A DNA stretch of 64,000 nt from an uncultured Eubacteriaceae bacterium (lineage in GTDB: Bacteria > Bacillota > Clostridia > Eubacteriales > UBA1433), in the NCBI GenBank assembly GCA_964533615.1, contig CAZHMK010000004.1, forward strand, positions 138,398 through 202,397, written 5' to 3'. The notes beneath the pieces are model-generated. The model worked only from the letters and a program-made list of their open reading frames with translations. It did no database searches and was not told the DNA's origin. This document shows, one piece after another, positions 9,109-57,676 of this stretch; within the stretch, counting starts at the first letter, position 1, and each line of letters starts with the position of its first letter. The position numbers were made by a program, and so were the translations under genes.

Positions 9109-9116
9109 CTATAGCT

Positions 9117-9145
9117 ATTTTATCAACAATTTTTCAGTTGTTCAA
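9117..9145 (-). promoter_or_regulatory. Putative pre-crRNA promoter overlapping the csn2 3' end
   Basis: Minus strand reads TTGAAC-N17-TAAAAT with an extended -10 TG (TGATAAAAT). The -10 ends about 8 nt before the first repeat. The csn2 stop codon (9134-9136) lies inside the spacer. Confidence 0.45.
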
Positions 9146-10000: not shown

Positions 10001-10326
10001 AAAATCACCACGCTTTCTTTTGAAACTTTTTTCTCATGATTGTTTCTGCTACCTGACAAAAAAATCATATTTTCATATTGTTTTTCTGTGATTTTAATTA
10101 CTCGTATTTCACCCGAAGATGGCAAAACTTTTTTGAGCTTTGTTATAAAAGAATTATAGTTTACTTCTTTACCTAAAATTTTGGCATAAATAGAATATTG
10201 TATTCGATAGCAACCTAAAGTTAATAGATTTTTTCTGAATTTATTATATTCTTTCACATCAATATTTTCTGTCATTGGCAAGTCATACATTATTAAAATT
10301 CTCACTTTTTTATAATCACTATCCAT
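9997..10326 (-). CDS. cas2: CRISPR-associated endoribonuclease Cas2
   Basis: 109 aa. The N-terminal ILIMYDL beta-strand carries the conserved Asp. Abuts the cas1 stop. Confidence 0.85.
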   Translation of the reverse strand: MDSDYKKVRILIMYDLPMTENIDVKEYNKFRKNLLTLGCYRIQYSIYAKILGKEVNYNSFITKLKKVLPSSGEIRVIKITEKQYENMIFLSGSRNNHEKKVSKESVVIF

Positions 10327-11229
10327 TTAGTATTTTTCCAAAACAGGATAATAAAAATTACGCAGCTTGCCGCTTTCTATACAGGAAAGAACGTCATTGA
10401 CATATACGGCGACTGAATTCAAGATTGAAAATTGTTTACCGCAGATACTGATCTTGTTGTTTAATATGTCTATTAACTCTTTTTTTAATTCTTTATCTAT
10501 TCTGTAATTCTTTCTATCTTTTTTTGTGAGCAGAATATTATAAACGAAGTAATCCACAATGGGTCTGTATATCTCAATCAAATCATCACTTAAATTAAAA
10601 TAATTGTATTCACTTTTGTGATTCAATCCGAGCTGAGTGTTATACCCTCTGCCGATGATTTCTTTTGTTATCAACGTTCGCACAAGATGATAACTGAAAT
10701 TCAAGCATGCGTTGATGATATCTTCTTCAAAGCGCACAAAACTCTCTCCAAACATCTCTTTGAAATATATCCTCGCTATAGTTCCCTCCCTGTTTGTCTT
10801 GTCTCCCAATGTTATGGTAGAAAAAAGATTGATTATTATATCTAATTTATTTATCTTCTTTAATTTTGAAAGAGTATTGATTTGATTTAATATTTTATAT
10901 GATATTATTTTTGTCCAAACTTCTTCTTTAATTTTATCATCCCAGTTGATTTGATTGAGAAGTCTTTTTGAGCTTCTGACATTGTTTTGCAGAGGTTGCA
11001 TTTCTCCTACCGGAAGATGATTATCTCCCATAACAATTACGCATATGCCGGATTTTGCCAGTTCACTTAGCAATCTGCAGGTAATATTGCAAAACATATC
11101 TTCAATAACGATTATACCTATTTCTTCTAAACTAATGTGATATTTTTGCTCCTGATGAATGACTTGTACATGATTGATATTAAGACTTATTTTTTGTGCA
11201 TCTGTAATATAGATTATTCGCCAGCTCAT
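10327..11229 (-). CDS. cas1: CRISPR-associated endonuclease Cas1 (type II)
   Basis: About 300 aa. Motifs NACLNFSYHLV and GLNHKSEYNYFNLSDDLIEIYRPIVD (catalytic His/Asp region). The ATG at 11229 is preferred over the GTG at 11235. Confidence 0.9.
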   Translation of the reverse strand: MSWRIIYITDAQKISLNINHVQVIHQEQKYHISLEEIGIIVIEDMFCNITCRLLSELAKSGICVIVMGDNHLPVGEMQPLQNNVRSSKRLLNQINWDDKIKEEVWTKIISYKILNQINTLSKLKKINKLDIIINLFSTITLGDKTNREGTIARIYFKEMFGESFVRFEEDIINACLNFSYHLVRTLITKEIIGRGYNTQLGLNHKSEYNYFNLSDDLIEIYRPIVDYFVYNILLTKKDRKNYRIDKELKKELIDILNNKISICGKQFSILNSVAVYVNDVLSCIESGKLRNFYYPVLEKY

Positions 11230-11237
11230 TTTCACCG

Positions 11238-11326
11238 TTAAAAGGAAAGAAGCCCTTTCGGGCTTCTTTGGGTTCAGAATTCACGTACAATAATAAGGAA
11301 CTCTGAAAAATCTGATTAATGTAACG
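11238..11326 (-). ncRNA. tracrRNA: tracrRNA (predicted, about 89 nt)
   Basis: Minus strand: CGUUACAUUAAUCAGAUUUUUCAGAGUUCCUUAUUAUUGUACGUGAAUUCUGAACCCAAAGAAGCCCGAAAGGGCUUCUUUCCUUUUAA. The anti-repeat pairs with the crRNA repeat as 23 bp, an internal loop, then 5 bp. It ends in a 10-bp GAAA-tetraloop terminator plus a U tract. Confidence 0.8.
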
Positions 11327-11331
11327 TTTTT

Positions 11332-11360
11332 ATTGTATAAGTAAAAATTTTTCTTGTCAA
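11332..11360 (-). promoter_or_regulatory. tracrRNA promoter
   Basis: Minus strand reads TTGACA (11360-11355), a 17-nt spacer, then TACAAT (11337-11332). The -35 begins 2 nt after the cas9 stop codon. Confidence 0.6.
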
Positions 11361-11362
11361 GT

Positions 11363-14300: not shown

Positions 14301-14647
14301 AAATATATAATGATATTGATAATATCCTGCATCTCTAATTTTTCGCCACTTTTTATTGCTCGTATTCTCTTTTCCAATAACTTAGAATCAATTGTGTTTT
14401 CATAATAAATATTATTTGCTTGAAATAATTTATACAGCCTTTCAATGCGATGATTTTTTCTTTTTATCCGTCTTCTGATATTGCGGAAATTTCTTCTATC
14501 CACTGCCTTTTCTGCTTGAGAAAAAAAACTGACTCCGCGATCAATAACTTCTTTTTTCGCTAAATCAATTACGCTCCATCCAATATCTGCAACACCCAAA
14601 TCAATGCCAATGGATATATTTTCATTCTTATTTATTTTTTCTGCCAT
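11363..14647 (-). CDS. cas9: CRISPR-associated endonuclease Cas9, compact type II-A ortholog
   Basis: 1094 aa. RuvC-I IGIDLGVADIGWSV, Arg-rich bridge helix RRNFRNIRRRIKRKNHRIERL, RuvC-II YICIEATT, HNH EIEHILPKS...CNHNKGQRTP, RuvC-III GFHHAVDAGV. All catalytic residues are present. Confidence 0.95.
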   Translation of the reverse strand: MAEKINKNENISIGIDLGVADIGWSVIDLAKKEVIDRGVSFFSQAEKAVDRRNFRNIRRRIKRKNHRIERLYKLFQANNIYYENTIDSKLLEKRIRAIKSGEKLEMQDIINIIIYFARHRGYIPFGDEERVNEFVTELRDKGYMPCEIQKELLNTYGQYRGAAYTITHKDYIQELKTLFGNQKRYYPQVLTDNFLNDVIQILDSKRQFWEGPGAPRLNALTKYGRYKVKEDIEKYELDNNYNKYLYENLVGNCKIYIGEKKVNSSNFYAEYFNFYNDLTNLKFSVDEMNNENLSYFEKIDNTTYKLKTFAIEELKEEILNSVKQIKPLIRKKFKVNVIIGEKTVGSESISTFKTYRSIKKVINNEQLFEELTENIDVYNTAIEIINISPDENTRFDMLETKLPHLSYELLNILKTKEIKSKIENKYQNFSEKAIKKYLSLMKQYNKNSSYIERTYPHEINADTEQYKIEHYINQNIEAGELKYISTNFIDDLVASPQTKKSLRKAITVLNKLFRKYGYPAYICIEATTNILSNDQKKEYEKATLENFRTREEARKKLVDLGYDCTDNNINKYLLLKEMDFKCAYCNAPISLNNCEIEHILPKSITGDDSFSNKTISCYDCNHNKGQRTPLAYLTSINQYEEFEKRIKANKNISNAKKGYLLFTGELIKYEKRFKNRNLNDTAYATNELANQLKLFLKAYENNNEEQLDLKIIKIPGKLTAIIRNRNGVEKDRDKGFHHAVDAGVIASIILLPIGRLMALIQNNPDKYWLSNIVSENRDQLFDMLNLPSKIRDSLKEASFENTRCSMEVKKNPQGKLYDANVQKVIKNKKDNQYYKISEIPNIYVNTSSENNSADNNEIKKTIDNIKKVFHDNTKELLCKKNDPHLYNKLHDILEKYSSGGINPFVAYCLENNVAEGEVFNYNIHGIRRDDKTSSPIVKKLRYLKKVTTPFLLEKKSINKKENTFLMYDSLQQYCSRVFKHKETGKLYIMPIYKVCVDFKTKKVLQDSKYYKTLYNEFIGVDRNELDFYMDLFNNEYIRFVNNDATVHEGFVGDFHKNNAKIIVKNCISITQKKTIEIKKINMDILGLYNLNVPK

Positions 14648-35299: not shown

Positions 35300-36142
35300 A
35301 TGCAAGTTCAATGGTTTCCCGGACACATGGCCAAGGCCATGCGTCTTGTAAAAGAACAACTCAAAAATGTTGATATCATTATCGAAGTATGCGATGCGCG
35401 AGCTCCCATATCCAGCAGAAACAATGAACTCACTGATATTTTAGGTAATAAAAAGCGAATTGTTGCCTATAATAAATCTTCTCTCGCAGATGAGACAATC
35501 TCAAAAAAATGGGAGAAATATTTAAAAAACAACGATGAACTCTTTGTGTTTACGGATGCGCTTAAACGTACGGGTATTAAAAATTTGTCCAATATTTTAA
35601 TCAATAAAGCGAGCTCTTCCATGCGCTATAACCGCGCTGTTCGAGCCATGGTCATCGGTCTTCCCAATGTTGGTAAATCTATGCTTATCAATAGTCTGAC
35701 TCTTTCTTCAAGCGCTAAGACTGGTAACCGCCCGGGCATTACACGAGGAAATCAATGGATACGACTCAATAACAGGCTTCATCTTTTAGATACCCCCGGC
35801 GTTTTGATGCCAAAAATAGAAAATGAAACGGATGCCTTTAATCTTGTTGCGATCGGTTGTGTCAAAGATATTATTTTTGATAAGTATATCGCCTGCAGAG
35901 AAATCCTTGACTTTATGAAAGAGCGGTACCCTTCTTTGATTAAGGCGCGTTACGCACTGGATGATCTTGACAGTCCAAGTGACGAAATCATCTCTGAGAT
36001 TGCTAAAAAAAGAGGTTTTTTTATCAAAGGCGGCGAGATTGATATCAATCGTTGCGCCGATACGATCTATGATGAATTCAAAAACGGTATTATAGGCCAA
36101 GTAAGCCTGCAATGCCCGGATGATAATAAAGTAACGGAATGA
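35300..36142 (+). CDS. rbgA: Ribosome biogenesis GTPase A (YlqF/RbgA)
   Basis: 280 aa. N-terminal QWFPGHMAKA. Circularly permuted GTPase motifs (NKSSL.., GLPNVGKS). Confidence 0.9.
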   Translation: MQVQWFPGHMAKAMRLVKEQLKNVDIIIEVCDARAPISSRNNELTDILGNKKRIVAYNKSSLADETISKKWEKYLKNNDELFVFTDALKRTGIKNLSNILINKASSSMRYNRAVRAMVIGLPNVGKSMLINSLTLSSSAKTGNRPGITRGNQWIRLNNRLHLLDTPGVLMPKIENETDAFNLVAIGCVKDIIFDKYIACREILDFMKERYPSLIKARYALDDLDSPSDEIISEIAKKRGFFIKGGEIDINRCADTIYDEFKNGIIGQVSLQCPDDNKVTE

Positions 36143-37278
36143 TAAAAATGATCAATTTTAAAGACTTTTCACTTCAAGAAATCAAAGATTATTTCAAAAC
36201 CATCGAAATCAGCGAATATAAAAATTATTACAACGATTTACTATCCGACAACCGAAAAAGTGTGCTTTTATTTGCAGATCATTTACAAAGACAAGAAAAT
36301 TTGTATAATAAAGAAATCCTGCGGACAGAGCATATGATTACTGCACAGAAATCATTATTTGACGATCGGGCCACTCTTATTGCCGGAATCGACGAGGTCG
36401 GCAGAGGGCCGCTGGCAGGCCCGGTCGTGGCATGCGCTGCAGTAATGAAAACAAACTCCCCTGTACTGTATCTAAACGACAGTAAGAAGCTGACTGCAAA
36501 GAGACGCGAAGAACTCTATCAACTCATTTATGACAACGCCGTATCCATAGGAATCGGCATTATCGATAATGCCAGAATTGATAAAATCAATATTTTAAAT
36601 GCAACAAAAGAGGCAATGATGCAAGCTGTAAAAAAATTAAGTATCACCCCCGATGCACTACTCATTGATGCGCTGTTGCTGCCCTGCCCCATCAAACAGG
36701 CGGGCCCAAGCAAAGCGGATGAAAATTATTACTCCGTCGCAGCGGCAAGCATCATTGCAAAAGTAACCAGAGATCATATGATGAAACAATATGCCCTTAA
36801 ATATCCCATGTATGAATTTGATGCAAACAAAGGATACGGCACATCTTCACATATCGCGGCGATCCACAAATACGGCCCATGCACTATTCACCGACAAAGC
36901 TTTATCAAAAAAATATTTACCGTAAATGATAAAAAAGCAATTGGCAACTCTGGCGAAGTGCTGGCCTGTGAATACATACTCAACAAAGGGTATTGTATTT
37001 TAGAAAAAAATTACAGAAGTCCGTACGGCGAGATTGACGTTATCTATAAAGATCATGAATATTTGGTATTCTGCGAAGTTAAAACGAGAAAGAATACCGA
37101 TTACGGCACTGGCTCCATGGCTGTGAGCTATTCTAAAATCAGCAAAATCACACAAACTGCGTTGTGTTATATCACACAGAACGACATTCAAGATACAGAT
37201 ATACGTTTTGATATTATCGAAATTTATGAAAATAATAAAATAGTTCATATTGACAATGCATTTACAGCCATGGCATAA
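36139..37278 (+). CDS. rnhB: Ribonuclease HII fused to a YraN/UPF0102 endonuclease-like domain
   Basis: 379 aa single ORF. RNase HII motifs GIDEVGRGPLAGPVV, DSKKLT and SIIAKV. C-terminal about 115 aa GEVLACEYILNKGYCILEKNYRSPYGEIDVIY..VFCEVKTR...RFDIIEI matches the YraN pattern. Confidence 0.85.
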   Translation: MIKMINFKDFSLQEIKDYFKTIEISEYKNYYNDLLSDNRKSVLLFADHLQRQENLYNKEILRTEHMITAQKSLFDDRATLIAGIDEVGRGPLAGPVVACAAVMKTNSPVLYLNDSKKLTAKRREELYQLIYDNAVSIGIGIIDNARIDKINILNATKEAMMQAVKKLSITPDALLIDALLLPCPIKQAGPSKADENYYSVAAASIIAKVTRDHMMKQYALKYPMYEFDANKGYGTSSHIAAIHKYGPCTIHRQSFIKKIFTVNDKKAIGNSGEVLACEYILNKGYCILEKNYRSPYGEIDVIYKDHEYLVFCEVKTRKNTDYGTGSMAVSYSKISKITQTALCYITQNDIQDTDIRFDIIEIYENNKIVHIDNAFTAMA

Positions 37279-46161: not shown

Positions 46162-48039
46162 ATGCTACTTACCGTAAGCAACATCAGTAAATCATTCGGT
46201 TCTACTGCCATACTTAATCATATTTCATTTTCATTAAACAAATCTGAAAAAATAGGTATCGTAGGCAAAAACGGCGCAGGTAAAACAACTCTCTTAAATT
46301 TAATATCAGGTAATCTGTCTCCGGAAAGCGGCTTTATAAATAAATCTCCCAATATAAAAATGGGGCAGTTAACACAAATGCCTTCTCTTGATTTATCCCT
46401 GAACGCTTATGATAATCTTTTATCCGAGTTTAAAGACCTGCTTTTTTTAGAAAATGCAATGGCTGATATCCAAAATAAATTATCTGATACACGCAGCAAA
46501 GATGATACTGATAAATTATTGGATAAATATGCTCTACTGTTTGAAACATATGAAAAAAACGGCGGATATTCTTACCCTTCTTTCATCAAAGGCGCTTTAA
46601 ACGGCTTTGGTTTTAATGACGAAGAGCTATCTCGGCCCACAGGCACTTTCAGCGGCGGGCAGCAAAATAAAATAGCTTTTATAAAACTCCTTTTGCAAAA
46701 ACCGGATATTCTTCTGCTTGATGAACCGACCAATTATTTTGATATCGCTACAATATCCTGGCTTGAGAGTTATTTGAAAGATTACCCGGGAACCATTATC
46801 ATCATCTCACACGATCGATATTTTCTGGATGCATTGGTAGATAAGATATTTGAAATCGAAAATACAAAATTGATCATATACAATGGAAATTACACCAATT
46901 ATACAAGACTTAAAGCAAAAAAAAATGAAGAAGATTACACGAAATATATACAGCAGAAAAAAGAAATCGCCAGACAAGAACAAATCATTGCACAATTTCG
47001 CAGATATAATAGAGAAAAAAGCATAAAGCAGGCAGAAAGCAGACAAAAGGCTCTTGATAAATTATCTCGCATCCAAAAACCTGTCACACACGATGCAGCT
47101 ATGAATTTATCGTTTAAGTGCAATGCTCCTTCAGGCAAAACTGTCTTAGAAATACAAAATTTATCGAAATCTTATGATTCAAAAACCATTATCAATGATT
47201 TTTCATATACAGTTTATAAAAATCAAAAGATCGGAATATTCGGCTCCAACGGCATCGGTAAATCAACCTTATTGAGAATTATCGCAGGAATAGATACAGA
47301 GTACCGCGGGGAATTAAATTATGGTCATAATGTGAGTATCGCTTATTTTGAACAGCAATTTCATTTTGAATACCCTACTGTTTTGGAAGAAATATTGTAT
47401 TTAGAGAACCAAAGCCTATCCATAGAGCAAGCCAGAAATTATCTGGCTCTGTTTCTGTTTTTCGCCGAAGATATATACAAAGAAATATCTGTTCTATCGG
47501 GCGGTGAAAAAAGCAGATTAAATTTACTTAAAACGATGCTCAAAGGCGCCAATCTTTTGCTTTTGGATGAAGCGACCAATCATTTGGATATTTATTCCGC
47601 AGAAGCTCTTGAAAATGCGCTGAAGCAATATGACGGCACCCTTATATTCGTATCGCATGATCGATATTTTTTAAACAACATATGTGATCATTTACTGGTA
47701 TTTGAAGATGACGCTATAAACTATTACGACGGTAATTATGACTATTATCTCAACCGTAAAGCCAACACGGAGACTGAAATTCAGATAAAAGAAAACAAAC
47801 AAAAAAATAAGCGATCTGAACGTAATAATTCTGCAAAAAAAATATTCAAACGTATAGATGAACTTGAAAAATTAATAAGCGACCTTGAAAGCACAATCAA
47901 TGAGACCGAAAATTTAATGTGCAAAAATGATTTTTATAAACTGGAAAATAATATCGAGATTACAAAGCAATATGAAAAAGATAAAGATTTACTAAATAAA
48001 TATGAAAACGAATGGCTTGAATTAAATGAAAAAATGTAA
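46162..48039 (+). CDS. ABC-F family ATPase (two ABC domains, no TMD, C-terminal coiled coil)
   Basis: 625 aa. Walker A twice (GKNGAGKTT, GSNGIGKST) and signatures FSGGQQNK/LSGGEKSR, joined by a charged linker. Confidence 0.9.
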   Translation: MLLTVSNISKSFGSTAILNHISFSLNKSEKIGIVGKNGAGKTTLLNLISGNLSPESGFINKSPNIKMGQLTQMPSLDLSLNAYDNLLSEFKDLLFLENAMADIQNKLSDTRSKDDTDKLLDKYALLFETYEKNGGYSYPSFIKGALNGFGFNDEELSRPTGTFSGGQQNKIAFIKLLLQKPDILLLDEPTNYFDIATISWLESYLKDYPGTIIIISHDRYFLDALVDKIFEIENTKLIIYNGNYTNYTRLKAKKNEEDYTKYIQQKKEIARQEQIIAQFRRYNREKSIKQAESRQKALDKLSRIQKPVTHDAAMNLSFKCNAPSGKTVLEIQNLSKSYDSKTIINDFSYTVYKNQKIGIFGSNGIGKSTLLRIIAGIDTEYRGELNYGHNVSIAYFEQQFHFEYPTVLEEILYLENQSLSIEQARNYLALFLFFAEDIYKEISVLSGGEKSRLNLLKTMLKGANLLLLDEATNHLDIYSAEALENALKQYDGTLIFVSHDRYFLNNICDHLLVFEDDAINYYDGNYDYYLNRKANTETEIQIKENKQKNKRSERNNSAKKIFKRIDELEKLISDLESTINETENLMCKNDFYKLENNIEITKQYEKDKDLLNKYENEWLELNEKM

Positions 48040-48072
48040 CATCAAGCCTAGTATCGCTTACTTAATCAGAGT

Positions 48073-48894
48073 TTATTCGTCAATAACTATAAAATGATGC
48101 TTGATTGTCTGTTTTTCTATAGGAGGTAATTTTGTATAATCTCCATAGACACGTCTTAAAAGATAATCATATTGTCTGGGAGCGGGAAACATATGCCCTT
48201 CAAACTCCACTTCAACAGGCTGCCCGTATACTTCATTGGGCACTGTTTGATTAAACATATTATGATAACTTGCCAGAGTAACTGTGTATTGATTATTTTT
48301 TCTGTCATTATATAGCTTAAAATTTTTATCCAGCAGCTTGTGTATTGTATTGATTGAAAGAAACTTTGATGACGCAGTAACTAATTTCCTCTTCACATTG
48401 TTTGGTTTGCGAAGAACCAATTTATAAGTAAGCATTGCTCTTAAAAAATTTATTTTCATCCCCTGCCATAATTGTCCAAGACTTTTTTGTTTTGGAACGG
48501 ATTCCATTGGGAAAATATCAATATAAGGCCCATTATTTTGTGTTAAATGCGCTATGTGTTTTTGTTTAAATTTTTGTTTACCAAGCAATCTTACTTTAAT
48601 AAACGGCGACCAATAACTATATACTGTACTGGGATGCTGTATTTCATAGTTCAGTCCCATTTCTTCCGGTGCAATTTTTAAAAATTTTTCATATTCATCC
48701 CGCTTCATTAAAATATCCAAATCATCGTCCCAAGGAATAAATCCTTTATGCCTAATTGCACCGAGCAGAGAACCTTCTCCGAGATAATAAGTAATGCCAT
48801 GTTTTTTACATATTTTATCTACCTGCAATAAGATATCTAATTCTATAGCCTGCAGCTCTCTTATTTGTTCTATAGTCAATTTTGAATTCTCCAA
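48073..48894 (-). CDS. licD: LicD-family phospho(no)-alcohol transferase
   Basis: 273 aa. YYLGEGSLLGAIRHKGFIPWDDDLDILM is the LicD signature. Confidence 0.8.
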   Translation of the reverse strand: MENSKLTIEQIRELQAIELDILLQVDKICKKHGITYYLGEGSLLGAIRHKGFIPWDDDLDILMKRDEYEKFLKIAPEEMGLNYEIQHPSTVYSYWSPFIKVRLLGKQKFKQKHIAHLTQNNGPYIDIFPMESVPKQKSLGQLWQGMKINFLRAMLTYKLVLRKPNNVKRKLVTASSKFLSINTIHKLLDKNFKLYNDRKNNQYTVTLASYHNMFNQTVPNEVYGQPVEVEFEGHMFPAPRQYDYLLRRVYGDYTKLPPIEKQTIKHHFIVIDE

Positions 48895-49072
48895 TTATAA
48901 TGATGATACTTAAAATCATTCATATAATATATTTGTTCTATTATTATAGACGCATAAATTTGTTTTATGTTCTATTGTATTATTCTCTAACGTATATTAT
49001 TTGACATATGCTAAATATATCATTTCTATTATACAAAAACAAAGCCGATTACACAACTTATAAATTTCTTAA

Positions 49073-50953
49073 TTATTTACCTGATAATTTTGTTATATAA
49101 ATAAAACTATGCCTTGATTTTCTCTTTTCAAGAGGTGGAAATGTTAAGTAATCACCGTAAATAATGCCCAAAACCAAATCATATTCCTGCGGCACAGGCA
49201 ACATCAATCCTTCAAAAGATATATATTGTGCCTTGCTAAATGCCTGAGCGGGAAAAGTTTGTTTTTTTAGTTGATAAGAGCTGCAGTAATTTGCTACATA
49301 ATCACAGCCAGATTTATCATTATAATATGTTGAAAGCGCTTCTATTTTTTTATGCAAAACTTCATAAGAACAAAAATAAGATTTTATTTTTGTAAAGAAT
49401 TTTTCTTTGGTCACTTTCATAGGATAACCTGTTTTAAAAAGAAGCATATCTCTGTATTTTCTTATTTTTTTTCTTCTTCTATTCTGCTCTTCTCCATATT
49501 CAACAGCTTTATCCAAAGGAAAAATATCAATATATACTCCATTGTATTCTTTTAAAGAAAAACTCTCATTATTAATAAAACCGGTATTTTCCAGTATGAC
49601 TATTTTTGAAAACGGCAAATGATATTCTTTGATTGTATGTCGATTGCATAATTTGCACCCATTGATTATTTGAGTATTAAACAACTTGATAAATTTATTA
49701 TAATCATCTCTTGGCATAATAATATCGACATCATCATCCCATGGTATAAACCCGTTATGACGGATCGCACCCAACAGCGTCCCTTCCGCTAAATAATAAG
49801 TAATATTGTTTTCTATGCAAAAAGCATCCACGATTTTTAGAATCTCCAATTCAATTAATTGCAATTTTTTAAATTGTTCAGGTGAAAAGTTTGCTTTGAT
49901 GAGCTTCTTTTTTTTACGCCAGAAAATCTTCATCAGCGCTCGGCGAAAACACATAGGTATAATAAAATACATTTTGAGTTTTGTCTTGTGCATTTTTGCT
50001 TTCGTAAACTTTTTTTGCGTTCTTTTTTTTATTAAATTTTTATATGAATATTGATAATATCTATTTTTTCTCCAATTAGGAAAATGATTGTCTAAATACT
50101 CATATGCACTATCAAAAAACTGATTCTGAAATTTTCTGTCAGTCGAATTTTTAAGTGTATTAATTCTTGCAAATATATGCATTCTGCATATATTTTCTAA
50201 AACTTCATAAGCGACGTCAAAAACTCCTTTTGATTTATAAAAATCAATTATGCTGTCACATGATTTAAAGATATCAAAAAGTCCCATATTCATGCTGTTC
50301 GTAATAGAATCTGTTCTGTCTGTTCTATAATTGCATAAAGCTTTATCTACCAGCTCAATTTTATTGGCCATTAAAAGTATATTATAGACAATAGCCGAAT
50401 CTTCAAAAACTTGTCCAACGGGAAAATATAAGTCATTATCAATAAATAATTTCCTTCTATACAGTTTATTAAATGCATAAGATTTGCACGCAAATAACAC
50501 TTCTGGATTTTCCTCAACGCTGCCGCCGAAGGCTCTTAAATAATGCAGAGGCATGATCTTTGTTTTATCTTCTTTGAGCTGATTAATGTAACAAACAACA
50601 ACATCGCAGTCTTGATCCACTGCTTTTGAATACATTTCTTCCAGCATATTTGTTTCAACATAATCATCAGAATCAACAAAGCCTATATATTCTCCTTGCG
50701 CCCTTTTTATCCCATAATTACGCGCATCACTGAGCCCACCGTTTTCTTTAGTATACGATTTTATTTTATTGGGATATTTTCGCATATATTCGTCAATAAT
50801 TAATTGCGAATTATCTGGAGAGCCGTCATTAATGACAAGTATTTCAATGTCCTTAAGGCTTTGATGAACTAAGCTGTCTAAGCACTGAGGTAAATATTTT
50901 TCCACATTATAAACTGGTACGACAACAGATACTTTTATATTATTTTTTTTCAT
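49073..50953 (-). CDS. Family-2 glycosyltransferase fused to a LicD domain
   Basis: 626 aa. N-terminal GT2 (VSVVVPVYNVEKYLPQCLDSL, DSDD). C-terminal LicD (YYLAEGTLLGAIRHNGFIPWDDDVDIIM). A basic/hydrophobic linker joins the two. Confidence 0.8.
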   Translation of the reverse strand: MKKNNIKVSVVVPVYNVEKYLPQCLDSLVHQSLKDIEILVINDGSPDNSQLIIDEYMRKYPNKIKSYTKENGGLSDARNYGIKRAQGEYIGFVDSDDYVETNMLEEMYSKAVDQDCDVVVCYINQLKEDKTKIMPLHYLRAFGGSVEENPEVLFACKSYAFNKLYRRKLFIDNDLYFPVGQVFEDSAIVYNILLMANKIELVDKALCNYRTDRTDSITNSMNMGLFDIFKSCDSIIDFYKSKGVFDVAYEVLENICRMHIFARINTLKNSTDRKFQNQFFDSAYEYLDNHFPNWRKNRYYQYSYKNLIKKRTQKKFTKAKMHKTKLKMYFIIPMCFRRALMKIFWRKKKKLIKANFSPEQFKKLQLIELEILKIVDAFCIENNITYYLAEGTLLGAIRHNGFIPWDDDVDIIMPRDDYNKFIKLFNTQIINGCKLCNRHTIKEYHLPFSKIVILENTGFINNESFSLKEYNGVYIDIFPLDKAVEYGEEQNRRRKKIRKYRDMLLFKTGYPMKVTKEKFFTKIKSYFCSYEVLHKKIEALSTYYNDKSGCDYVANYCSSYQLKKQTFPAQAFSKAQYISFEGLMLPVPQEYDLVLGIIYGDYLTFPPLEKRKSRHSFIYITKLSGK

Positions 50954-50963
50954 ATATTTCCCT

Positions 50964-51818
50964 TTACTTATCAGTTAAGTCTTGTTTTATTGAAAAATGG
51001 TGTTTCATTATTCTTTCTGACTCATCAGGTAACAACATATACTCTCCGTAAATAGCCGTAAGCAAACATTCCGTTTTGGCAGGTATTGGAAATTCACATC
51101 CTTCAAAAACATGCATTCTGCCTTTATCATAAACAGATTTATGCACTGTCTGATTAGCAGGCGGATAATAGCTTCCATAGCTTACCATATATTCATTATT
51201 TTTTTTATGATTATATTTTGTCATAATTTTTTTTATTTTTTTATGTATAAATTTAACAGTTATTATTTTACTGAATAAAAATAATGCAATATTAAATTTA
51301 TTTTTAAAATTCATAGAATATCGTGTTTTAAAAAACAATGTTCTACGTAACGCTTTTATTTTATATCCCTGCCACAGTTGTATGAAACTGCTTCGTTTAG
51401 GAACATAATCCAATGGGAAAATGTCTATGTAAGGACCGTAATATCTAGATAATTTTTTTACTTTAGACTGCTCATATCTAGTTTGCCGTGTTAATTTTAC
51501 TTTTGCACCGATTACCCAATAGTTTGGATTTGTTTCCATGCAGTCCAAAAAATACCCTTTAGGAAGCAATATTGGAGCCAGACTTATAAATTCCTCATAA
51601 TCATCTCTCGGCATCAAAATATCGACATCATCATCCCATGGTATAAAACCGTCATGTCGAATCGCTCCAAGTAAAGTTCCTTCTCCCAAATAATAATTGA
51701 TATTGTTTTGTTTACAAAATTCATCAACCACAAGCAAAATCTCTAATCCATATGCCTGCAGTTCTTCGATTTGATCATATGTATTATCTTGTTTATATAC
51801 TGCTTCCATTTCTCTCAC
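50964..51818 (-). CDS. licD: LicD-family phospho(no)-alcohol transferase
   Basis: 284 aa. YYLGEGTLLGAIRHDGFIPWDDDVDILM. Confidence 0.8.
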   Translation of the reverse strand: MREMEAVYKQDNTYDQIEELQAYGLEILLVVDEFCKQNNINYYLGEGTLLGAIRHDGFIPWDDDVDILMPRDDYEEFISLAPILLPKGYFLDCMETNPNYWVIGAKVKLTRQTRYEQSKVKKLSRYYGPYIDIFPLDYVPKRSSFIQLWQGYKIKALRRTLFFKTRYSMNFKNKFNIALFLFSKIITVKFIHKKIKKIMTKYNHKKNNEYMVSYGSYYPPANQTVHKSVYDKGRMHVFEGCEFPIPAKTECLLTAIYGEYMLLPDESERIMKHHFSIKQDLTDK

Positions 51819-51820
51819 TT

Positions 51821-53653
51821 CTAATCAGCCAAAATATGTTTGTAAATATCTTCAATAATATTTTTATCAAGCATAACAGGATTATTTTTTAACCTTACAG
51901 GATTAACAGAATTCACTAACTCTATTAATTCGTCTTTATTTTTTAATTTGGGACTTGGCAAATTTAATTTTTTGTATAATTGTATGAATTTACCGATACA
52001 TTCATTTGAATTCATTGCATAAAACATATCATTCAGCTCTGCAAATATATTTTTTAAATAATCTCTGCCTCTTTTATCTGTACATTTATCCAAATTACGG
52101 ACCATATACATCCATATATGTGGCAAACTTAAGCTCACTGCATGTCCATGGGAGATATTGTACAGTGAAGAGAGCTTATAACTCATTGCGTGAGCTGCCG
52201 TGGTCTGTGCAATATTGATTGCTTTTCCGCTTAAAAACGAAGCTCTTTGCATATTTTTTAATGCATCTAAATCATTTAGAAGTGCTTTATCAATATTTTT
52301 GAGTATAAACTGTATACTTTCTTTTGAATACTGCCTGCTTATTTTAGTTGAATTTACCGACCAAAAAGCTTCAATCGCCTGGCAAAGTGCGTCCAGCATT
52401 GTTGATTTTTTCTGATAATCCGGCAATTTGGTAAGCAGCCTCGGATCTAAAATAACATATTCTGGAATAATGCTGTCATGGCTGATAGATTGTTTTTCGC
52501 CTTCATAATACAAAACAGAAAATCTTGTGCATTCACTGCCTGTCCCGGCTGTTGTGGGCACCGCTAAATGCTTTATCGGACAAAATTTATATGCTTGTTT
52601 TAAATAATTTCGGCTGTTGTCAAGACATGAAAATAATTTGATATTTTTGGCCGTATCAATAGCGCTCCCTCCTCCAATTGACACAATAAAATCACACTGA
52701 TTTTTATTGAATAATTCAACCCCTTTCGCAACATCCTCATAAACCGGATTAGAAGAAAAATCACTAAAACGAATGATTTCTACTTTCAGTGAAGCAATAT
52801 AATCTTTTAAATACTGTTTATCATAACTTCTTCCGCAGACAAGCATTATTTTTCTTGCATTATTTTCTCTTAAAATAGTTTCTATTTGTAAATAATCGTC
52901 TTCTCCCTCAAATATCATCTGTGCATCGAAATCATATTGCCTGATTTCTTCACTGACTCGTTTTAAATCTTGCGGCGTGTCAATTTCATCTATATAATAA
53001 TTTTCATAATCAAATGCTTCGATATTTAAAGAAGGCAAAATTTCGTTCAATGCATTTTCAGCATAAACTTGATTCATTCCGCTCGCTATAAACCCACTAA
53101 TTCGACCGAGCCATTTTATGATATATTCTTTGCTTAATTTATAAAAAGGCTGAAATGCATAGCAATCTGCATCAAAGATTTCTATACCTATTTTTTGAAT
53201 TTTGTTATCTTTAAGCTTTGCTTTAAAATCTTTTTGAGGCAAAACTTTCTCTTTATTGACCGCCGCTATATTCTCTCTGCTGTCTTTAAGCATATCCTCG
53301 ACTAATTTCTTGGTAAAAACCAAGTCCCCATGCATGAGCAATATATCATCATTTAAATACTGTTCCGTTAAATACATTGAATATATATAATTGGTTTTAT
53401 CATAAAACGGATTATGTATAAAGGTAAAAGATACTTGGTTATCTCTGTTCATTTGATTCGCCGCGGCTTCAATCTTTTCTCGATACGGGCCTGTTGTAAT
53501 AACAAATTCCTTAATGCCGCATTCCATCAAAATACGAAGCTGTCTTAAAAAAACAGCTTCTCCGTTTGATAATTGCACCATTGCCTTATGATTATTTTTT
53601 GTTAGCTCACCCATTCTTTTCCCTATTCCGGAATTCAATATAACAGCTTTCAT
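51821..53653 (-). CDS. Nucleotidyltransferase (LicC/MobA-like) fused to an iron-containing alcohol dehydrogenase (candidate phosphonoacetaldehyde reductase)
   Basis: 610 aa. N-terminal KAVILNSGIGKRMG NTP-transferase loop. C-terminal Fe-ADH motif GGGSAIDTAKNIK with His-rich metal-site region. 2-nt gap from ppd. Confidence 0.75.
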   Translation of the reverse strand: MKAVILNSGIGKRMGELTKNNHKAMVQLSNGEAVFLRQLRILMECGIKEFVITTGPYREKIEAAANQMNRDNQVSFTFIHNPFYDKTNYIYSMYLTEQYLNDDILLMHGDLVFTKKLVEDMLKDSRENIAAVNKEKVLPQKDFKAKLKDNKIQKIGIEIFDADCYAFQPFYKLSKEYIIKWLGRISGFIASGMNQVYAENALNEILPSLNIEAFDYENYYIDEIDTPQDLKRVSEEIRQYDFDAQMIFEGEDDYLQIETILRENNARKIMLVCGRSYDKQYLKDYIASLKVEIIRFSDFSSNPVYEDVAKGVELFNKNQCDFIVSIGGGSAIDTAKNIKLFSCLDNSRNYLKQAYKFCPIKHLAVPTTAGTGSECTRFSVLYYEGEKQSISHDSIIPEYVILDPRLLTKLPDYQKKSTMLDALCQAIEAFWSVNSTKISRQYSKESIQFILKNIDKALLNDLDALKNMQRASFLSGKAINIAQTTAAHAMSYKLSSLYNISHGHAVSLSLPHIWMYMVRNLDKCTDKRGRDYLKNIFAELNDMFYAMNSNECIGKFIQLYKKLNLPSPKLKNKDELIELVNSVNPVRLKNNPVMLDKNIIEDIYKHILAD

Positions 53654-53655
53654 TT

Positions 53656-54765
53656 TTATTTACTTAGTTTCTCCATCATAGCAATTTTATTTTCTTGAGG
53701 TGTTGTCGTCGGGCGACCTAAATCACTTCTTGAACCTTGCTTGGTATAAATAATCAATGCGCTTTTCTGCTTTGTTTTAAGCATCCTCATCGCATCTTTT
53801 ATTTCATCTTTTTCAGTCGCTTTATAAACATTTGTAAACCCAAACCCTTTTAATATGGTTTGTATATCTATGTCAAAAGCTACTGTCGGTTGCCCTCCTA
53901 CGGATTCATGTGCTCCATTGTTGATTAATATATATTTGAAATTATTTTGTGCATTTTGTGCTATGACACCAAATCCGCCGGCATGCATTAGAAATGACCC
54001 ATCTCCGTCAATGCAGTAAATATTTTTATCTGTGCCAAGAGTCATACCAAAAGCAATAGATGCTGTATGCCCCATGGATCCGACAGTCAAAAAATCATTC
54101 GCGTGCCCCTGCCCACCAGCTTCCCTTAATTCAAATATTTCTCTGGATGTTTTTCCTGTTGTCGACACAATAAACTCCTCGTCATCAAGCATTTTTAAAA
54201 TAATCTTTAATGCTTCTTCTCGTGTCAGAGTATATCGGCTTATTTTTTTTGATACCTTATAATCTGAAAATAATCCTTTGCGCACAATAAGCGCTATCGG
54301 CTTATTATATTTTTTCATATATTCATAGCAATAATCTATTTGATTTTTATAATTATCCTCTAAAATAATGTATTCAATGCCCATTGTATCTAATAAAGAA
54401 AGGGTCACTTTACCTTGCTTTTTATGCTGCGGTTCATCTTTTATGCCGGGTTCTCCTCTCCATCCGATAAGCAGAAGCATCGGAATTTTATAAACATCTT
54501 CATCAGCAAGCGAAAGCAGTGGGTTTACAGTGTTTCCCTGCCCTGAATTTTGCATATAAACAACACCGTATTTACCTGTTGCGATATGATATCCGCATGC
54601 CATGGCCACGGCATTTCCCTCGTTTGCTGTAATAATATTCTTTTTAGTACAACAATTTTCTTTTATGCATGCACAAATATTTTTAAGAAGAGAGTCGGGC
54701 ACTCCCATATACATATCCAATTGCTTGGTTTGCAAGTAATCATAAAATCCTTTTGTTTCAATCAT
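53656..54765 (-). CDS. ppd: Phosphonopyruvate decarboxylase (TPP-dependent)
   Basis: About 369 aa from MIETKGF (GGAGG RBS inside the pepM 3' end). MGVPDSLLK N-terminal motif and GDGS TPP motif (CIDGDGSFLMH). Confidence 0.85.
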   Translation of the reverse strand: MIETKGFYDYLQTKQLDMYMGVPDSLLKNICACIKENCCTKKNIITANEGNAVAMACGYHIATGKYGVVYMQNSGQGNTVNPLLSLADEDVYKIPMLLLIGWRGEPGIKDEPQHKKQGKVTLSLLDTMGIEYIILEDNYKNQIDYCYEYMKKYNKPIALIVRKGLFSDYKVSKKISRYTLTREEALKIILKMLDDEEFIVSTTGKTSREIFELREAGGQGHANDFLTVGSMGHTASIAFGMTLGTDKNIYCIDGDGSFLMHAGGFGVIAQNAQNNFKYILINNGAHESVGGQPTVAFDIDIQTILKGFGFTNVYKATEKDEIKDAMRMLKTKQKSALIIYTKQGSRSDLGRPTTTPQENKIAMMEKLSK

Positions 54766-54767
54766 TC

Positions 54768-56081
54768 TTATTTGCCTCCGGGAATCAATGTCAATATTTC
54801 GTTTATAGGCATACACAGTTCGTCTACCTCTTTACTTCGTCCGCATTGCAAAATCATTTTTGCTGTTTTTTCCATCGCCGGATACGCACTTCGAAGCAGA
54901 TGGTTGGCATGAATGATAATATTGGCTCCGGCTGCGTGTAATGCTTCCTCTGTGATGTAATTATATGATGTAGGAATGACAATAATAGGTATATCTGTTG
55001 AATATTCCCTGAATTTTGCTAAAAATTCCATGACTTCTTTTCCATCTTTTTCTTTACTGTGAATCGTAATGCCGTCAGCACCTGCTTCTATATATATCTT
55101 TGCTCTTGATAATGCTTCGTCAACACCGTAACCCGCAATCAAGCTTTCTATTCTTGCAAATATCATAAAGTCTCTGGTAACCTGTGCTTGCTTGCCTGCC
55201 AATATTTTTTTTGCGAATAAATGCGGGTCATCCATTGTCTGCTCAACATCGGTACCAAAAAGCGAATTTTTTTTCAATCCTGTTTTGTCTTCGATAATTA
55301 TTGCGGAAACACCGAGTCGTTCAAGGGTTTTTACATTGTATACAAAATGTTCGATCTTCCCTCCCGTATCTCCGTCAAGAATGATTGGCTTTGTGGTCAC
55401 TTCCATTATTTCATTGATTGTGTTGATCCTGCTTGTTAAGTCTACCAGCTCAATATCTGGTTTCCCCTTAAAAGTAGAGTCGCACAGGCTACTGATCCAC
55501 ATGGCGTCAAATTCTTTCATTGTTGCTGTTACAGGATTTTCAACTCTGAGATTTTCTACAATAAGCCCTGTCAAGCCATTAGATGCTTCCATTACAGTAA
55601 TATAAGGCTTTAACGACAGTAAACGTTTAAGTTTTGCGCGTCGATTATCGGGCGTGTTATTTAAAAGCCGGAATTGTTGTTCTAAATCTGTAGCAGAAAT
55701 TCCTTTTGTATAGGGCACTTCGATTAATTTACCGTTCCACTGTGAAAGAATAGCGATCACATTTTCCCTGACAAGCGATTGAATGCCTTTTTTCCAGTCA
55801 TCTCCATGCAAAACGAAGTCAGGTTTAAATTTTAATAAATTTTCTGTATAATCCAGACTTGTTTGCGGAACTACCTGAGAAACATTCTTTATATTTTTAA
55901 ATATTTTTTCTCTTGCCTCGTAATCTAACAGAGGAAGCCTTTTATATGCTGCTATCGCTTCATCTGTCATTAATCCGATAATTATTTCTCCGTATTTTGA
56001 TCCTTCTTCAATTACATTTATATGTCCGCTATGAATGATATCAGCGGACACGGCTATATATACTTTTTTCTTATCTTGCAT
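54768..56081 (-). CDS. pepM: Cytidylyltransferase (TagD-like) fused to phosphoenolpyruvate mutase
   Basis: 437 aa. N-terminal SADIIHSGH...HGDDW (HxGH cytidylyltransferase fold). C-terminal PepM domain with the diagnostic EDK-X5-NS motif (EDKTGLKKNS). Confidence 0.9.
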   Translation of the reverse strand: MQDKKKVYIAVSADIIHSGHINVIEEGSKYGEIIIGLMTDEAIAAYKRLPLLDYEAREKIFKNIKNVSQVVPQTSLDYTENLLKFKPDFVLHGDDWKKGIQSLVRENVIAILSQWNGKLIEVPYTKGISATDLEQQFRLLNNTPDNRRAKLKRLLSLKPYITVMEASNGLTGLIVENLRVENPVTATMKEFDAMWISSLCDSTFKGKPDIELVDLTSRINTINEIMEVTTKPIILDGDTGGKIEHFVYNVKTLERLGVSAIIIEDKTGLKKNSLFGTDVEQTMDDPHLFAKKILAGKQAQVTRDFMIFARIESLIAGYGVDEALSRAKIYIEAGADGITIHSKEKDGKEVMEFLAKFREYSTDIPIIVIPTSYNYITEEALHAAGANIIIHANHLLRSAYPAMEKTAKMILQCGRSKEVDELCMPINEILTLIPGGK

Positions 56082-56163
56082 ATTTTTTTCTCCTTAGAAA
56101 AATGCAACTTCTCCTAATTATATCATAGTTTTTCTTATCACAACAATAATTTGATTTTACAAT

Positions 56164-56191
56164 ATTATAATACTTGCTTAACATTTGTCAA
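56164..56191 (-). promoter_or_regulatory. Putative promoter of the phosphonate operon
   Basis: Minus strand TTGACA-N16-TATAAT, about 75 nt upstream of the pepM ATG and just downstream of the LCP-gene terminator. Confidence 0.5.
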
Positions 56192-56220
56192 TTTATCTTT
56201 ATCGTAAAAAATTTACAATA

Positions 56221-56246
56221 AAAATCAGCCTAAATAGGCTGATTTT
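56221..56246 (-). terminator. Intrinsic terminator after the LCP gene
   Basis: AAAATCAGCC-TAAATA-GGCTGATTTT, 6 nt after the 56252 stop. U tract on the minus strand. Confidence 0.65.
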
Positions 56247-56251: not shown

Positions 56252-57676
56252 TTAGGGTGTAGTTGATGTGTCATCCTCCTCTGGTGTATCATCTGAAGGA
56301 GTATCATCTGCAGGGGTATCATCTGCGGGGGTATCGTCACTTGTAGAAGTATCATCCGTCGAAGTATCATCTTCAATGATAATATCTTCTTCATCAGTTG
56401 TATCTTCTGTATCATTATTCGTTGTAGTTCTTCTATTATCTATTCTCAGCTCTTCTTGCGTCCACTGAGATGCAGAAATACCAAAAACATCTTTAATCAA
56501 AGAAACTCTTTTAGACTGATTGATAATCCACATAGAAATACCATCTCTTGATCCATAAAAACCCGGAAATGTGTGTGTGTTTATATTATCAACATCCAAG
56601 TCTTTTACATTGGCGGCTAAAGATACCACTTGCTCAAAAGTAAAGTTCGTATAAATATCCTCTTTCAAAGACTGATAAATTGTAGGAATCGACATTAATT
56701 TATTAGATTCTTTGAATTGTTCAAACAACGCTTTCAATAATTTTTGCTGCATGGCAACTCTTTCTATATCACTGCCTGCATTTTTTCTGTCTCTTGCTAG
56801 GAAAAGAAAATTTTTGCCATTCAGAACTTGATTGCCTTTTTCTAATTTTAGTTTACCGTCTTTATACAGATTATATGGAATATCAAATTCAACCCCGCCC
56901 ATGCTGTTGACAACATCAACTACGGTATCCATATCAACACCCACATAAAAATCGATGGGCACCCCGCCAAGCAAAGCGCTGACTGTTTGCTCAAGACACT
57001 CTAATCCATTTTCAAAATCAGTGTCTTTATCACCATAAATGGCTCCATAATACATACATGCATTTATTTTGGTCCTCCCTCTGTTCCCATAGAGAGGCAC
57101 ATAAGTATCCCTGGGAATAGAAATTAAATCAACTTCTTCCGTTTCCAAATTGATACTTGCCAAAACAATCGTATCCGGCCTGTAAATACTTCCATATTTC
57201 CCGCTTTCTTCTCTGCCTTCACTTCTGTCAATACCAAAAATCAATATATTAATTGTGTTGCCGTCAAAATTCTCGGCTACATTTAATCCCTTATATACAT
57301 TGACTTTATTTAAAAATTTATCTTTCTCTCTTACCAATGAATTCGAGCCACTGTTTGCAAGCTTATTGACATACCCGAAGCCTACCACGCCTGCAATGCC
57401 CAGCAATACGATAATAGATATAAGCACCTTGAACCATCTTCTTTGAATGATGCTTTTTTTCTTATACGTATCAAATTCATCATCTGATACTTCATATTCA
57501 ACTTCCGGCATTTCCTCCACAGGTCGTATGTCCGATTGATTGTTTTTCTCCTCACTGTCAGAAATATCAGCTTGCACGTTCATTAATTGAGCATCGTCAT
57601 CACTGATCGATTGGTCATTTTCATTATTTATATCATCATTTTCATTTTCGTAATTTTTGTTATTATCGCTATCCAT
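56252..57676 (-). CDS. LytR-CpsA-Psr (LCP) family glycopolymer ligase with acidic N- and C-terminal tails
   Basis: 474 aa. Single TM helix (WFKVLISIIVLLGIAGVVGF), then the LCP core (INILIFGIDRSEGRE...DTIVLASIN...ISIPRDTYV). Confidence 0.85.
   Translation of the reverse strand: MDSDNNKNYENENDDINNENDQSISDDDAQLMNVQADISDSEEKNNQSDIRPVEEMPEVEYEVSDDEFDTYKKKSIIQRRWFKVLISIIVLLGIAGVVGFGYVNKLANSGSNSLVREKDKFLNKVNVYKGLNVAENFDGNTINILIFGIDRSEGREESGKYGSIYRPDTIVLASINLETEEVDLISIPRDTYVPLYGNRGRTKINACMYYGAIYGDKDTDFENGLECLEQTVSALLGGVPIDFYVGVDMDTVVDVVNSMGGVEFDIPYNLYKDGKLKLEKGNQVLNGKNFLFLARDRKNAGSDIERVAMQQKLLKALFEQFKESNKLMSIPTIYQSLKEDIYTNFTFEQVVSLAANVKDLDVDNINTHTFPGFYGSRDGISMWIINQSKRVSLIKDVFGISASQWTQEELRIDNRRTTTNNDTEDTTDEEDIIIEDDTSTDDTSTSDDTPADDTPADDTPSDDTPEEDDTSTTP
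56283..56342 (-). repeat. 15-bp tandem repeat x4 inside the LCP gene 3' end
   Basis: GG(T/A/G)GTATC(A/G)TC(T/A)... units at 56283, 56298, 56313 and 56328. They encode DDTP(A/S/E) pentapeptide repeats. Confidence 0.7.

Follow-up and report, generated by a model that had tools for sequence, protein, structure and literature searches.

Which phosphonate does an operon make when half of its genes encode LicD and glycosyltransferase domains, and where is that phosphonate placed? The question is raised by a 64-kb stretch of DNA from an uncultured Eubacteriaceae bacterium, a Gram-positive anaerobe of gut type (contig CAZHMK010000004.1), in which six minus-strand genes (48073-56081) combine phosphoenolpyruvate (PEP) mutase, phosphonopyruvate decarboxylase and nucleotidyltransferase domains with LicD-type transferases. 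The full 64-kb stretch is called the window here, and all coordinates count from its position 1. We consider it likely that the operon is a self-contained module predicted to make 2-hydroxyethylphosphonate (HEP), to activate it with cytidine monophosphate (CMP) and to attach it to envelope glycoconjugates. Based on the list of open reading frames (ORFs) and domain scans, the genes, all in the same direction, are:

54768-56081, minus strand: gene 1, Fom1-like bifunctional protein with a cytidylyltransferase (CyTase; residues 1-140, PF01467) and a PEP mutase (PepM; residues 150-437, PF13714)
53656-54765, minus strand: gene 2, phosphonopyruvate decarboxylase (Ppd), 369 residues from ATG, with TPP_enzyme_N and TPP_enzyme_C domains
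51821-53653, minus strand: gene 3, LicC/PntC-like nucleotidyltransferase (NTase; residues 1-240, PF12804) fused to a PhpC-like iron-type alcohol dehydrogenase (Fe-ADH; residues 246-607, PF00465 and PF25137)
50964-51818, minus strand: gene 4, LicD1, predicted core phosphonyl (HEP) transferase (PF04991, 158.7 bits; PWDDDVD)
49073-50953, minus strand: gene 5, family 2 glycosyltransferase (GT2; residues 1-300, PF00535) fused to LicD2 (residues about 370-626, PF04991, 160.5 bits)
48073-48894, minus strand: gene 6, LicD3, a third LicD paralogue (PF04991, 158.4 bits)

An initial annotation of this DNA had described six packed, co-directional genes at these positions, ending in LicD, GT2-LicD and LicD, and the domain scans recovered every domain that it named. 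Genes 1-5 are separated by gaps of just 2-10 nt. The gap between genes 5 and 6 is AT-rich and measures 178 nt; a terminator scan of it detected none.

The C-terminal domain of gene 1 is a predicted PEP mutase, which would convert PEP to phosphonopyruvate. It scored 380.8 bits against the TIGR02320 equivalog (cutoff 319.55), contains the catalytic motif EDKxxxxxNS in the form EDKTGLKKNS, and scored far under the cutoffs of the sister families phosphonopyruvate hydrolase and methylisocitrate lyase, so the CyTase-PepM fusion proposed earlier on the basis of this motif was borne out. The N-terminal CTP_transf_like domain (PF01467, 46.5 bits, cutoff 21) matched the CyTase domain of Fom1 (5x3d) with an E-value of 2.2e-47, at about 55% identity by hand count over the 130 aligned residues. 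In an account in PMC6697681 that cites Cho 2017, the Fom1 CyTase domain makes CMP-HEP, and by homology the PepM-fused CyTase could do the same. The Ppd gene follows pepM, as annotated; its product scored 440.8 bits against TIGR03297 (cutoff 312.5) and under the cutoffs of the sulfopyruvate decarboxylase models, and a GDG...NN thiamine pyrophosphate (TPP) motif is visible in its sequence. The listed GTG start of this gene (54816) overlaps pepM, and independent gene calls take ATG 54765, which is almost certainly the true start.

Gene 3 proved to be the NTase-Fe-ADH fusion that had been annotated (NTP_transf_3 and Fe-ADH domains) and is a predicted phosphonoacetaldehyde reductase and HEP cytidylyltransferase in one protein. 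Its NTase domain scored 39.6 bits against PF12804 (cutoff 27), carries the GxGxR signature with G9, G11 and R13 invariant in the family, and matched both LicC (1jyk, E 7e-10) and PntC (6pd1, E 1.6e-6). The pocket specific for 2-aminoethylphosphonate (AEP) in the PntC of Treponema denticola (Tde-PntC) includes Glu104, which contacts the AEP amine, and Glu196. At the first of these positions the window protein has His108, a histidine found in 26 of 26 family members, and the second was not alignable. The replacement of Glu104 by an invariant histidine argues that the domain is not an AEP-type PntC but a PntC-like enzyme with another predicted head group.

The Fe-ADH domain (PF00465, 131 bits) is a group III alcohol dehydrogenase that keeps the GGGS motif for nicotinamide adenine dinucleotide. 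Its metal ligands are D421, Q425, H488 and H502, that is, Asp-Gln-His-His, and the family also has an invariant T484 and Y492, which lie four residues before and after H488. These residues match D191/H195/H260/H274, T256 and Y264 of PhpC (positions from PMC13576164), in a model of which Thr256 and Tyr264 contact HEP; Tyr264 shows strict conservation among PhpC enzymes (PMC13576164), which are otherwise very divergent, down to 26.8% identity (PMC13576164). As a tyrosine also occupies the Y492 position in the generic Fe-ADH TM0920, it discriminates weakly for PhpC, and the residue signature is consistent with PhpC without being exclusive to it. It was considered whether glutamine in place of histidine as the second metal ligand inactivates the dehydrogenase. 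This was ruled out, since the same residue is present in the closest solved relative, 6jko, a structure deposited under the name methanol dehydrogenase, and in the Zn-dependent sulfoacetaldehyde reductase, with its Asp-Gln-His-His ligands (PMC13576164).

No class V aminotransferase (AEP transaminase, AEPT/PhnW) was found in the operon or among the window ORFs scanned, and the operon differs in this from the textbook AEP pathway of PEP mutase (Ppm), Ppd and AEPT. The sole aminotransferase found belongs to class IV and lies 4 kb off, beyond three unrelated genes. Given that the cluster has no such aminotransferase and that a PhpC-like reductase is joined to the NTase, the predicted phosphonate is HEP rather than AEP. 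The initial annotation had cited AEP and phosphocholine as precedents and had left the phosphonate itself open; these two observations refine it to HEP. HEP-modifying enzymes such as MpnS, HEPD or Fom3 were absent from the operon.

Gene neighbourhoods of the NTase-ADH family

The NTase-ADH fusion was detected in 378 species-representative genomes by a pattern scan with tblastn confirmation. Carriers include Oscillospiraceae, Acutalibacteraceae, Christensenellaceae, Lachnospiraceae, Erysipelotrichaceae, Propionibacteriales, Eggerthellaceae and a few bins labelled Bacteroidota. Among the cultured carriers are Yeguia hominis NSJ-40, Anaerosporobacter mobilis DSM 15930, Butyrivibrio sp. LB2008 and Tessaracoccus caeni. 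The top 120 database matches of the window protein were all full-length fusions (48-78% identity), and, with only the NTase domain as query, an exhaustive search yielded 183 cluster representatives at E <= 1e-30. Two longer relatives, P0155 and P0209, measure 1228 and 1381 residues.

We fetched 80 related loci out of the genomes bearing the fusion, and all locus counts below refer to these. Ppd adjoins the NTase-ADH gene in 79 loci and PepM in 75, with most of the misses on short or truncated contigs; the association is far beyond chance. It follows that the Fe-ADH is a dedicated part of the Ppm-Ppd pathway. Biosynthetic PhpC enzymes are defined by a context with pepM and ppd (PMC8942020, PMC13576164), and the Fe-ADH has that context. 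The recurrent ORF clusters c4, c14, c70 and c74 were set aside as apparent shadow ORFs of high-GC genomes, by composition.

Genes downstream of the core fell into three classes: LicD (35 loci), CDP-alcohol phosphatidyltransferase, which we call lipid-type (12 loci), and neither (33 loci). The strongest evidence that HEP formation, activation and LicD transfer would be consecutive steps of one pathway comes from proteins in which NTase, ADH and LicD are joined, in the manner of a Rosetta stone. Such triple fusions, as one protein of ~905 residues, occurred in 14 of the 80 loci and in nearly all Propionibacteriales homologues. They span about 875-1005 residues, dominate in Propionibacteriales (Tessaracoccus, Arachnia, Propionicimonas) and are also found in Clostridia; examples are P0275-P0328, P0005, P0027, P0036, P0076, P0079, P0090, P0098 and P0108, and loci L075, L065 and L082. 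When the LicD domains of 62 triple fusions were compared with the three LicDs of the window, 61 of them best matched LicD1, the product of the gene directly after NTase-ADH, and LicD1 was therefore marked as the predicted core transferase.

The surroundings of the core in relatives include genes for TagGH-like ABC exporters, Wzx-type flippases and glycosyltransferases. The TagGH-like exporters are found with the core in 18 loci, of which 12 are LicD-type, in keeping with glycopolymer targets. Some of the 33 loci with neither output are on short contigs, and others lie by Wzx-type flippases, GT4/GT8 glycosyltransferases or a YidC-TagF-like fusion. The latter is a 742-aa protein (L041 5348-7576; also L017, L020 and L061) that joins a YidC/Oxa1-like insertase (PF02096) to a TagF-like CDP-glycerol glycerophosphotransferase (PF04464). 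It directly adjoins the Ppd/PepM core in loci without LicD, where it may serve as another transferase of the activated phosphonate.

The 12 lipid-type loci (L052 2979-11806, L067 2969-11785 and L068 3008-11788; also L050, L054, L070-L072, L077, L078, L080 and L084) belong to Lachnospiraceae-type genomes (Butyrivibrio, Anaerosporobacter mobilis, Faecalimonas). In them a conserved gene set (acyltransferase, AMP-ligase, B12-binding radical SAM protein, CDP-alcohol phosphatidyltransferase and a 216-aa protein) precedes PepM, Ppd and NTase/ADH. This looks like a phosphonolipid pathway, in which the Fom3-like radical SAM protein suggests methylation of CMP-HEP. The lipid-type output was never found together with LicD or with CyTase-fused PepM. 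In total, 13 related loci have a standalone PepM without the CyTase domain (12 lipid-type and one truncated upstream). As the lipid-type loci run on NTase-ADH alone, the PepM-fused CyTase appears dispensable for activation and for the core.

Proposed pathway, transferases and alternative products

From family membership, motifs, gene order and the association across genomes, we infer each catalytic step, the use of CMP as the activating nucleotide and the acceptor. The PEP mutase domain would convert PEP to phosphonopyruvate, and Ppd would decarboxylate this to phosphonoacetaldehyde, pulling the unfavourable mutase equilibrium forward. The PhpC-type Fe-ADH domain would then reduce phosphonoacetaldehyde to HEP, and the fused LicC/PntC-like NTase would combine HEP with cytidine triphosphate (CTP) to give CMP-HEP, as the Fom1-like CyTase could likewise do. 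LicD1, with LicD2 and LicD3 as accessory enzymes, would take the hydroxyethylphosphonyl group of CMP-HEP, place it on sugar hydroxyls and release CMP, and the GT2 fused to LicD2 may add a sugar at or beside the LicD2 acceptor site. Candidate acceptors are lipid-linked precursors of teichoic acid or wall polysaccharide, or glycolipids, at the cytoplasmic face, with the polymer encoded elsewhere. The core of the initial annotation had the same sequence of events, from PepM and Ppd through phosphonoacetaldehyde and nucleotidyl activation to LicD transfer onto an envelope glycoconjugate, and is supported by the family scores, the gene association and the triple fusions.

All three LicD domains scored well above the PF04991 cutoff of 22.6 bits. 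The PWDDD(V/L)D sequence, a DxD metal motif, is invariant across them, and the paralogues are 41-46% identical to each other. Each has a 1:1 orthologue (80-92% identity) in the closest reference genome, a metagenome-assembled genome of an uncultured Eubacteriaceae bacterium (L005) with 78% identity on the NTase-ADH fusion protein; identity was 82-85% for GT2-LicD2 and 92% for LicD3. An independent gene call gave LicD3 268 residues, and its start may instead be TTG 48879, preceded by GGAG. GT2-LicD fusions were found in nine of the 80 loci. FKRP (6kaj, E 1.6e-3) was the only solved structure detectable from LicD by sequence. From the NTase-ADH-LicD fusions, the LicDs are predicted to use a CMP-phosphonate as donor and a glycan as acceptor. 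CMP activation followed by LicD transfer had been annotated as the known route for attaching phosphocholine or AEP to glycans and teichoic acids. Of these two steps, the cytidylyltransferase step alone has been shown for AEP in the literature, and LicD transfer of a CMP-phosphonate is a literature proposal.

Several observations weigh against the HEP module as proposed. LicD-type transfer of a CMP-phosphonate is at the stage of a proposal, LicD is present in about 35-37 of the 80 related loci only, and the window contains no genes for polymer assembly or export. The two cytidylyltransferases appear redundant in this scheme. The Fe-ADH scored 141 bits against the phosphonate-linked model TIGR03405, far from its cutoff of 423.7 and similar to its scores against generic Fe-ADH models, so the assignment of its substrate comes from context and a few residues. 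All members of the NTase-ADH family are known from sequence alone. Finally, Stackebrandtia and Glycomyces were absent from a homology search with an actinobacterial member, which returned Propionibacteriales, Cryobacterium and Clostridia; a link between the family and these verified producers of HEP glycans was accordingly not established.

Four alternative readings were weighed. That a membrane glycolipid or lipoteichoic-acid anchor, and not a peptidoglycan-linked polymer, serves as acceptor is unlikely. The sole NCBIfam match of all three LicDs was Mf1, a LicD-family diacylglycerol cholinephosphotransferase of Mycoplasma glycolipids, but at 74-86 bits the scores were far under its cutoff of 225. 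The LytR-CpsA-Psr (LCP) ligase gene upstream of the operon is separately transcribed and seldom adjacent in relatives, and the related Lachnospiraceae loci send the same core to a CDP-alcohol phosphatidyltransferase, a lipid-type output; yet the lipid-type and LicD-type outputs are mutually exclusive across loci, and LicD-type loci often carry glycosyltransferases along with the TagGH-like exporters (12 loci).

We regard it as quite unlikely that HEP is a backbone unit, with its free hydroxyl glycosylated by GT2 or re-phosphonylated by a LicD to give a teichoic-acid-like chain with C-P linkages. HEP has this free hydroxyl and phosphocholine does not, GT2 is fused to a LicD, and each of the three diverged LicDs is conserved between species. 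Tandem addition of ribitol phosphate is known from the LicD-family proteins FKTN and FKRP, with the second unit placed on the first, and Yu and colleagues reportedly described in 2014 HEP esterified to hexose and also to glycerol. A specific version, which seems decidedly unlikely, is that GT2-LicD and the other LicDs would alternate sugar and hydroxyethylphosphonyl units, or place HEP on HEP, with the two CyTases supplying separate transferases and the backbone C-P linkages resisting phosphatases and phosphodiesterases; if true, a new class of wall polymer for Gram-positive bacteria would be common among gut and rumen anaerobes. A backbone role is without direct evidence, and the operon lacks a TagF-like polymerase, an exporter and a priming transferase. 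Three LicDs were present in four of the 80 loci only, with most having none or one, and three acceptor positions on an existing glycan would explain the data equally well.

It is very improbable that the decoration is AEP or another aminophosphonate, with a transaminase encoded elsewhere and the Fe-ADH in a side or salvage role. AEP is the predicted product of 56% of ppm neighbourhoods (PMC8942020), characterised PntCs prefer it, and the genome was visible only over 64 kb, but the operon has no aminotransferase and the scanned window ORFs none of class V. In addition, the Fe-ADH is fused to the NTase in 80 of 80 loci, exactly where AEP-type clusters carry the transaminase, and the amine-contacting Glu104 of PntC is an invariant histidine in the family. 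A soluble, fosfomycin-like natural product is extremely improbable: gene 1 shows the complete Fom1 architecture, its CyTase domain is closely related and the Fe-ADH corresponds to the FomC/PhpC step, but the operon is without a Fom3-type B12 radical SAM methyltransferase, epoxidase, FomD-like hydrolase and resistance or export genes, and LicD and GT2 transferases make up half of it.

Should the HEP module be confirmed, HEP-decorated envelopes would be common in gut, rumen and environmental anaerobes, as the core module is present in 378 species-level genomes of Clostridia, Bacilli and Actinomycetota. Environmental HEP, whose presence is presupposed by the dedicated HEP-catabolic pathways described recently (PMC13576164), would thereby have a biological source. 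HEP would also constitute a hydrolysis-resistant anionic epitope with a bearing on phage receptors, immune recognition and phosphorus cycling. The operon would further be the first system for testing LicD-type CMP-phosphonate transfer, with the NTase-ADH-LicD triple fusions as convenient single-protein targets.

Transcription, the LCP gene and other features of the window

The region upstream of gene 1 contains the following features:

56117-56125, minus strand: possible second promoter element, an extended -10 (TGATATAAT), read from the sequence inside the near-invariant leader
56164-56191, minus strand: sigma-70-type promoter P1, TTGACA-N16-TATAAT
56216-56245, minus strand: intrinsic-terminator-like hairpin and T-run 3' of the LCP gene, AAATCAGCC-TATTTA-GGCTGATTT then TTTATT
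56252-57676, minus strand: LCP glycopolymer ligase gene (PF03816, 113.8 bits; TIGR00350, 97.8 bits)

The consensus promoter annotated ahead of the operon was confirmed at 12 of 12 positions. Perfect TTGACA/TATAAT patterns occur twice in the 64-kb window, compared with 0.15 copies expected by chance, and the second copy (TTGACA-N17-TATAAT, 6195-6223) lies directly ahead of a TPP riboswitch (Rfam RF00059, 60.3 bits, 6239-6350). In L005 the -35 hexamer of the operon promoter is kept and the -10 is TAAAAT. The operon leader of ~85 nt (56082-56160 on the minus strand; L005 7490-7572) is almost 100% identical between the two species, and the DNA just upstream of P1 is visibly less conserved. Because the 5' untranslated region is nearly invariant, a riboswitch or other structured leader was looked for and ruled out, with a folding z-score of -0.52 (not significantly structured) and no match in an Rfam search of the leader. 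The extended -10 element within it is a possible second promoter element.

The initial annotation had placed an LCP ligase gene immediately upstream. Its position was correct, and the gene adjoins the operon in both the window and L005. The hairpin and T-run between the LCP gene and P1 indicate a separate transcription unit, and the gene adjoins the core in three of the 80 related loci only. We therefore rejected LCP both as an operon member and as a conserved partner of the core. A functional partnership with the operon is possible, and the adjacency is weak evidence for wall anchoring. The hairpin is also kept in L005. It was read by eye from the sequence and not listed by the automatic terminator scan, probably owing to its AT-rich stem. 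Two acidic extensions that are unusual for an LCP ligase are present on the LCP protein: its N-terminal region and a long, low-complexity C-terminal tail rich in Thr, Asp and Pro (…DDTSTDDTSTSDDTPADDTPADDTPSDDTPEEDDTSTTP).

Housekeeping genes surround the operon: aconitase and FtsEX-PcsB lie at one end, ABC-F, Rex and glutamine synthetase at the opposite end. The entire seven-gene layout and the same housekeeping flanks are found in L005. GC content in the LicD part of the operon (48000-52000) is 0.30, the lowest of the neighbourhood, compared with 0.33-0.40 for the flanking genes. Such low GC is often met in surface-polysaccharide genes or acquired DNA.

A search of the window for rRNA and tRNA genes found none. 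One 379-aa ORF (36139-37278) joins RNase HII (PF01351) to a UPF0102/YraN-like domain (PF02021), which are usually encoded by separate adjacent genes. The window also holds a compact type II CRISPR-Cas locus (8671-14647, minus strand):

11363-14647, minus strand: Cas9, 1094 residues, in a low-GC stretch (10-14 kb, GC 0.28-0.29)
10327-11235, minus strand: Cas1
9997-10326, minus strand: 109-aa ORF, probably Cas2 by position and size alone
9134-10000, minus strand: 288-aa ORF with no Pfam match
8671-9110: CRISPR array of seven repeats at 65-66 nt spacing, with a shared repeat core of roughly GTGTTACATTAATCAGATTTTCCAGCACCTTAAAAC

Comparison with known systems

A very distant likeness is to the eukaryotic ribitol-phosphate transferases FKTN and FKRP, which share the LicD fold and DxD motif but use a CDP-ribitol donor and another acceptor. 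The Lic pathway of pneumococcus and Haemophilus follows the same logic, with CTP-dependent activation by an NTase of the LicC fold and LicD transfer to sugars of teichoic acid or lipopolysaccharide. It has several LicD paralogues for different positions. In the Lic pathway the head group is imported choline phosphorylated by LicA and the donor is a CDP-alcohol, whereas in the window a C-P bond would be made de novo and the predicted donor is a CMP-phosphonate; neither LicA nor LicB is present.

The predicted product belongs to the same class as the HEP phosphonoglycans of Glycomyces sp. and Stackebrandtia nassauensis, which were described by Yu et al. 2014 and are, according to PMC8942020 and PMC13576164, the only chemically verified HEP-decorated bacterial glycans; those are actinomycete exopolysaccharides. 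PhpC-containing, HEP-type clusters account for 8.5% of ppm neighbourhoods, two of them with isolated products, including the Stackebrandtia HEP glycan (PMC8942020).

The Streptomyces Fom1/FomC/PhpC systems for fosfomycin and phosphinothricin share with the window the CyTase-PepM architecture, at the CyTase identity given above (about 55%), and the predicted chemistry follows the Fom1/FomC route from PEP through phosphonopyruvate, phosphonoacetaldehyde and HEP to CMP-HEP. The operon differs from the Fom1 system in having no Fom3, Fom4 or FomD and in an ADH that carries an extra NTase domain. CMP-HEP is a transient intermediate in the fosfomycin route and the predicted LicD donor here.

The Pnt pathway of oral anaerobes is the closest characterised system, and the window appears to follow the same design with a predicted reductase in place of the transaminase. 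T. denticola Tde1415 is a LicC-like NTase fused to an enzyme acting on phosphonoacetaldehyde, and beside it lie a ppm-fused NTase, Ppd and LicD-like genes (PMC6697681); the predicted destination in Pnt clusters is a cell-surface glycan. In Tde1415 the fused enzyme is a class V aminotransferase and the product is CMP-AEP, the PntC-AEP transaminase fusion having been biochemically verified for AEP (PMC6697681); in the window it is an Fe-ADH, and CMP-HEP is predicted. The two NTases are distant (E 1.6e-6), with Glu104 in Tde-PntC and an invariant histidine in the window family.

The gene fusions and the multiplicity of transferases had been annotated as lying outside the textbook AEP pathways. 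The fusions are present, but they are less unusual than this suggested. In PMC6697681, 23.6% of Ppm enzymes have the PF01467 fusion, and clusters are described in which LicD-like genes accompany a ppm-fused NTase and a second PntC. Rice et al. 2019 noted the same CyTase duplication in three AEP clusters, without explanation (PMC6697681). Within its incomplete coverage, our literature search returned no paper that describes or characterises the NTase-ADH fusion, its triple fusions with LicD or decoration with HEP in Clostridia. The operon is real and widespread, and it is built from recognised parts with a recognised logic, as a variant of a pathway type that has been described.

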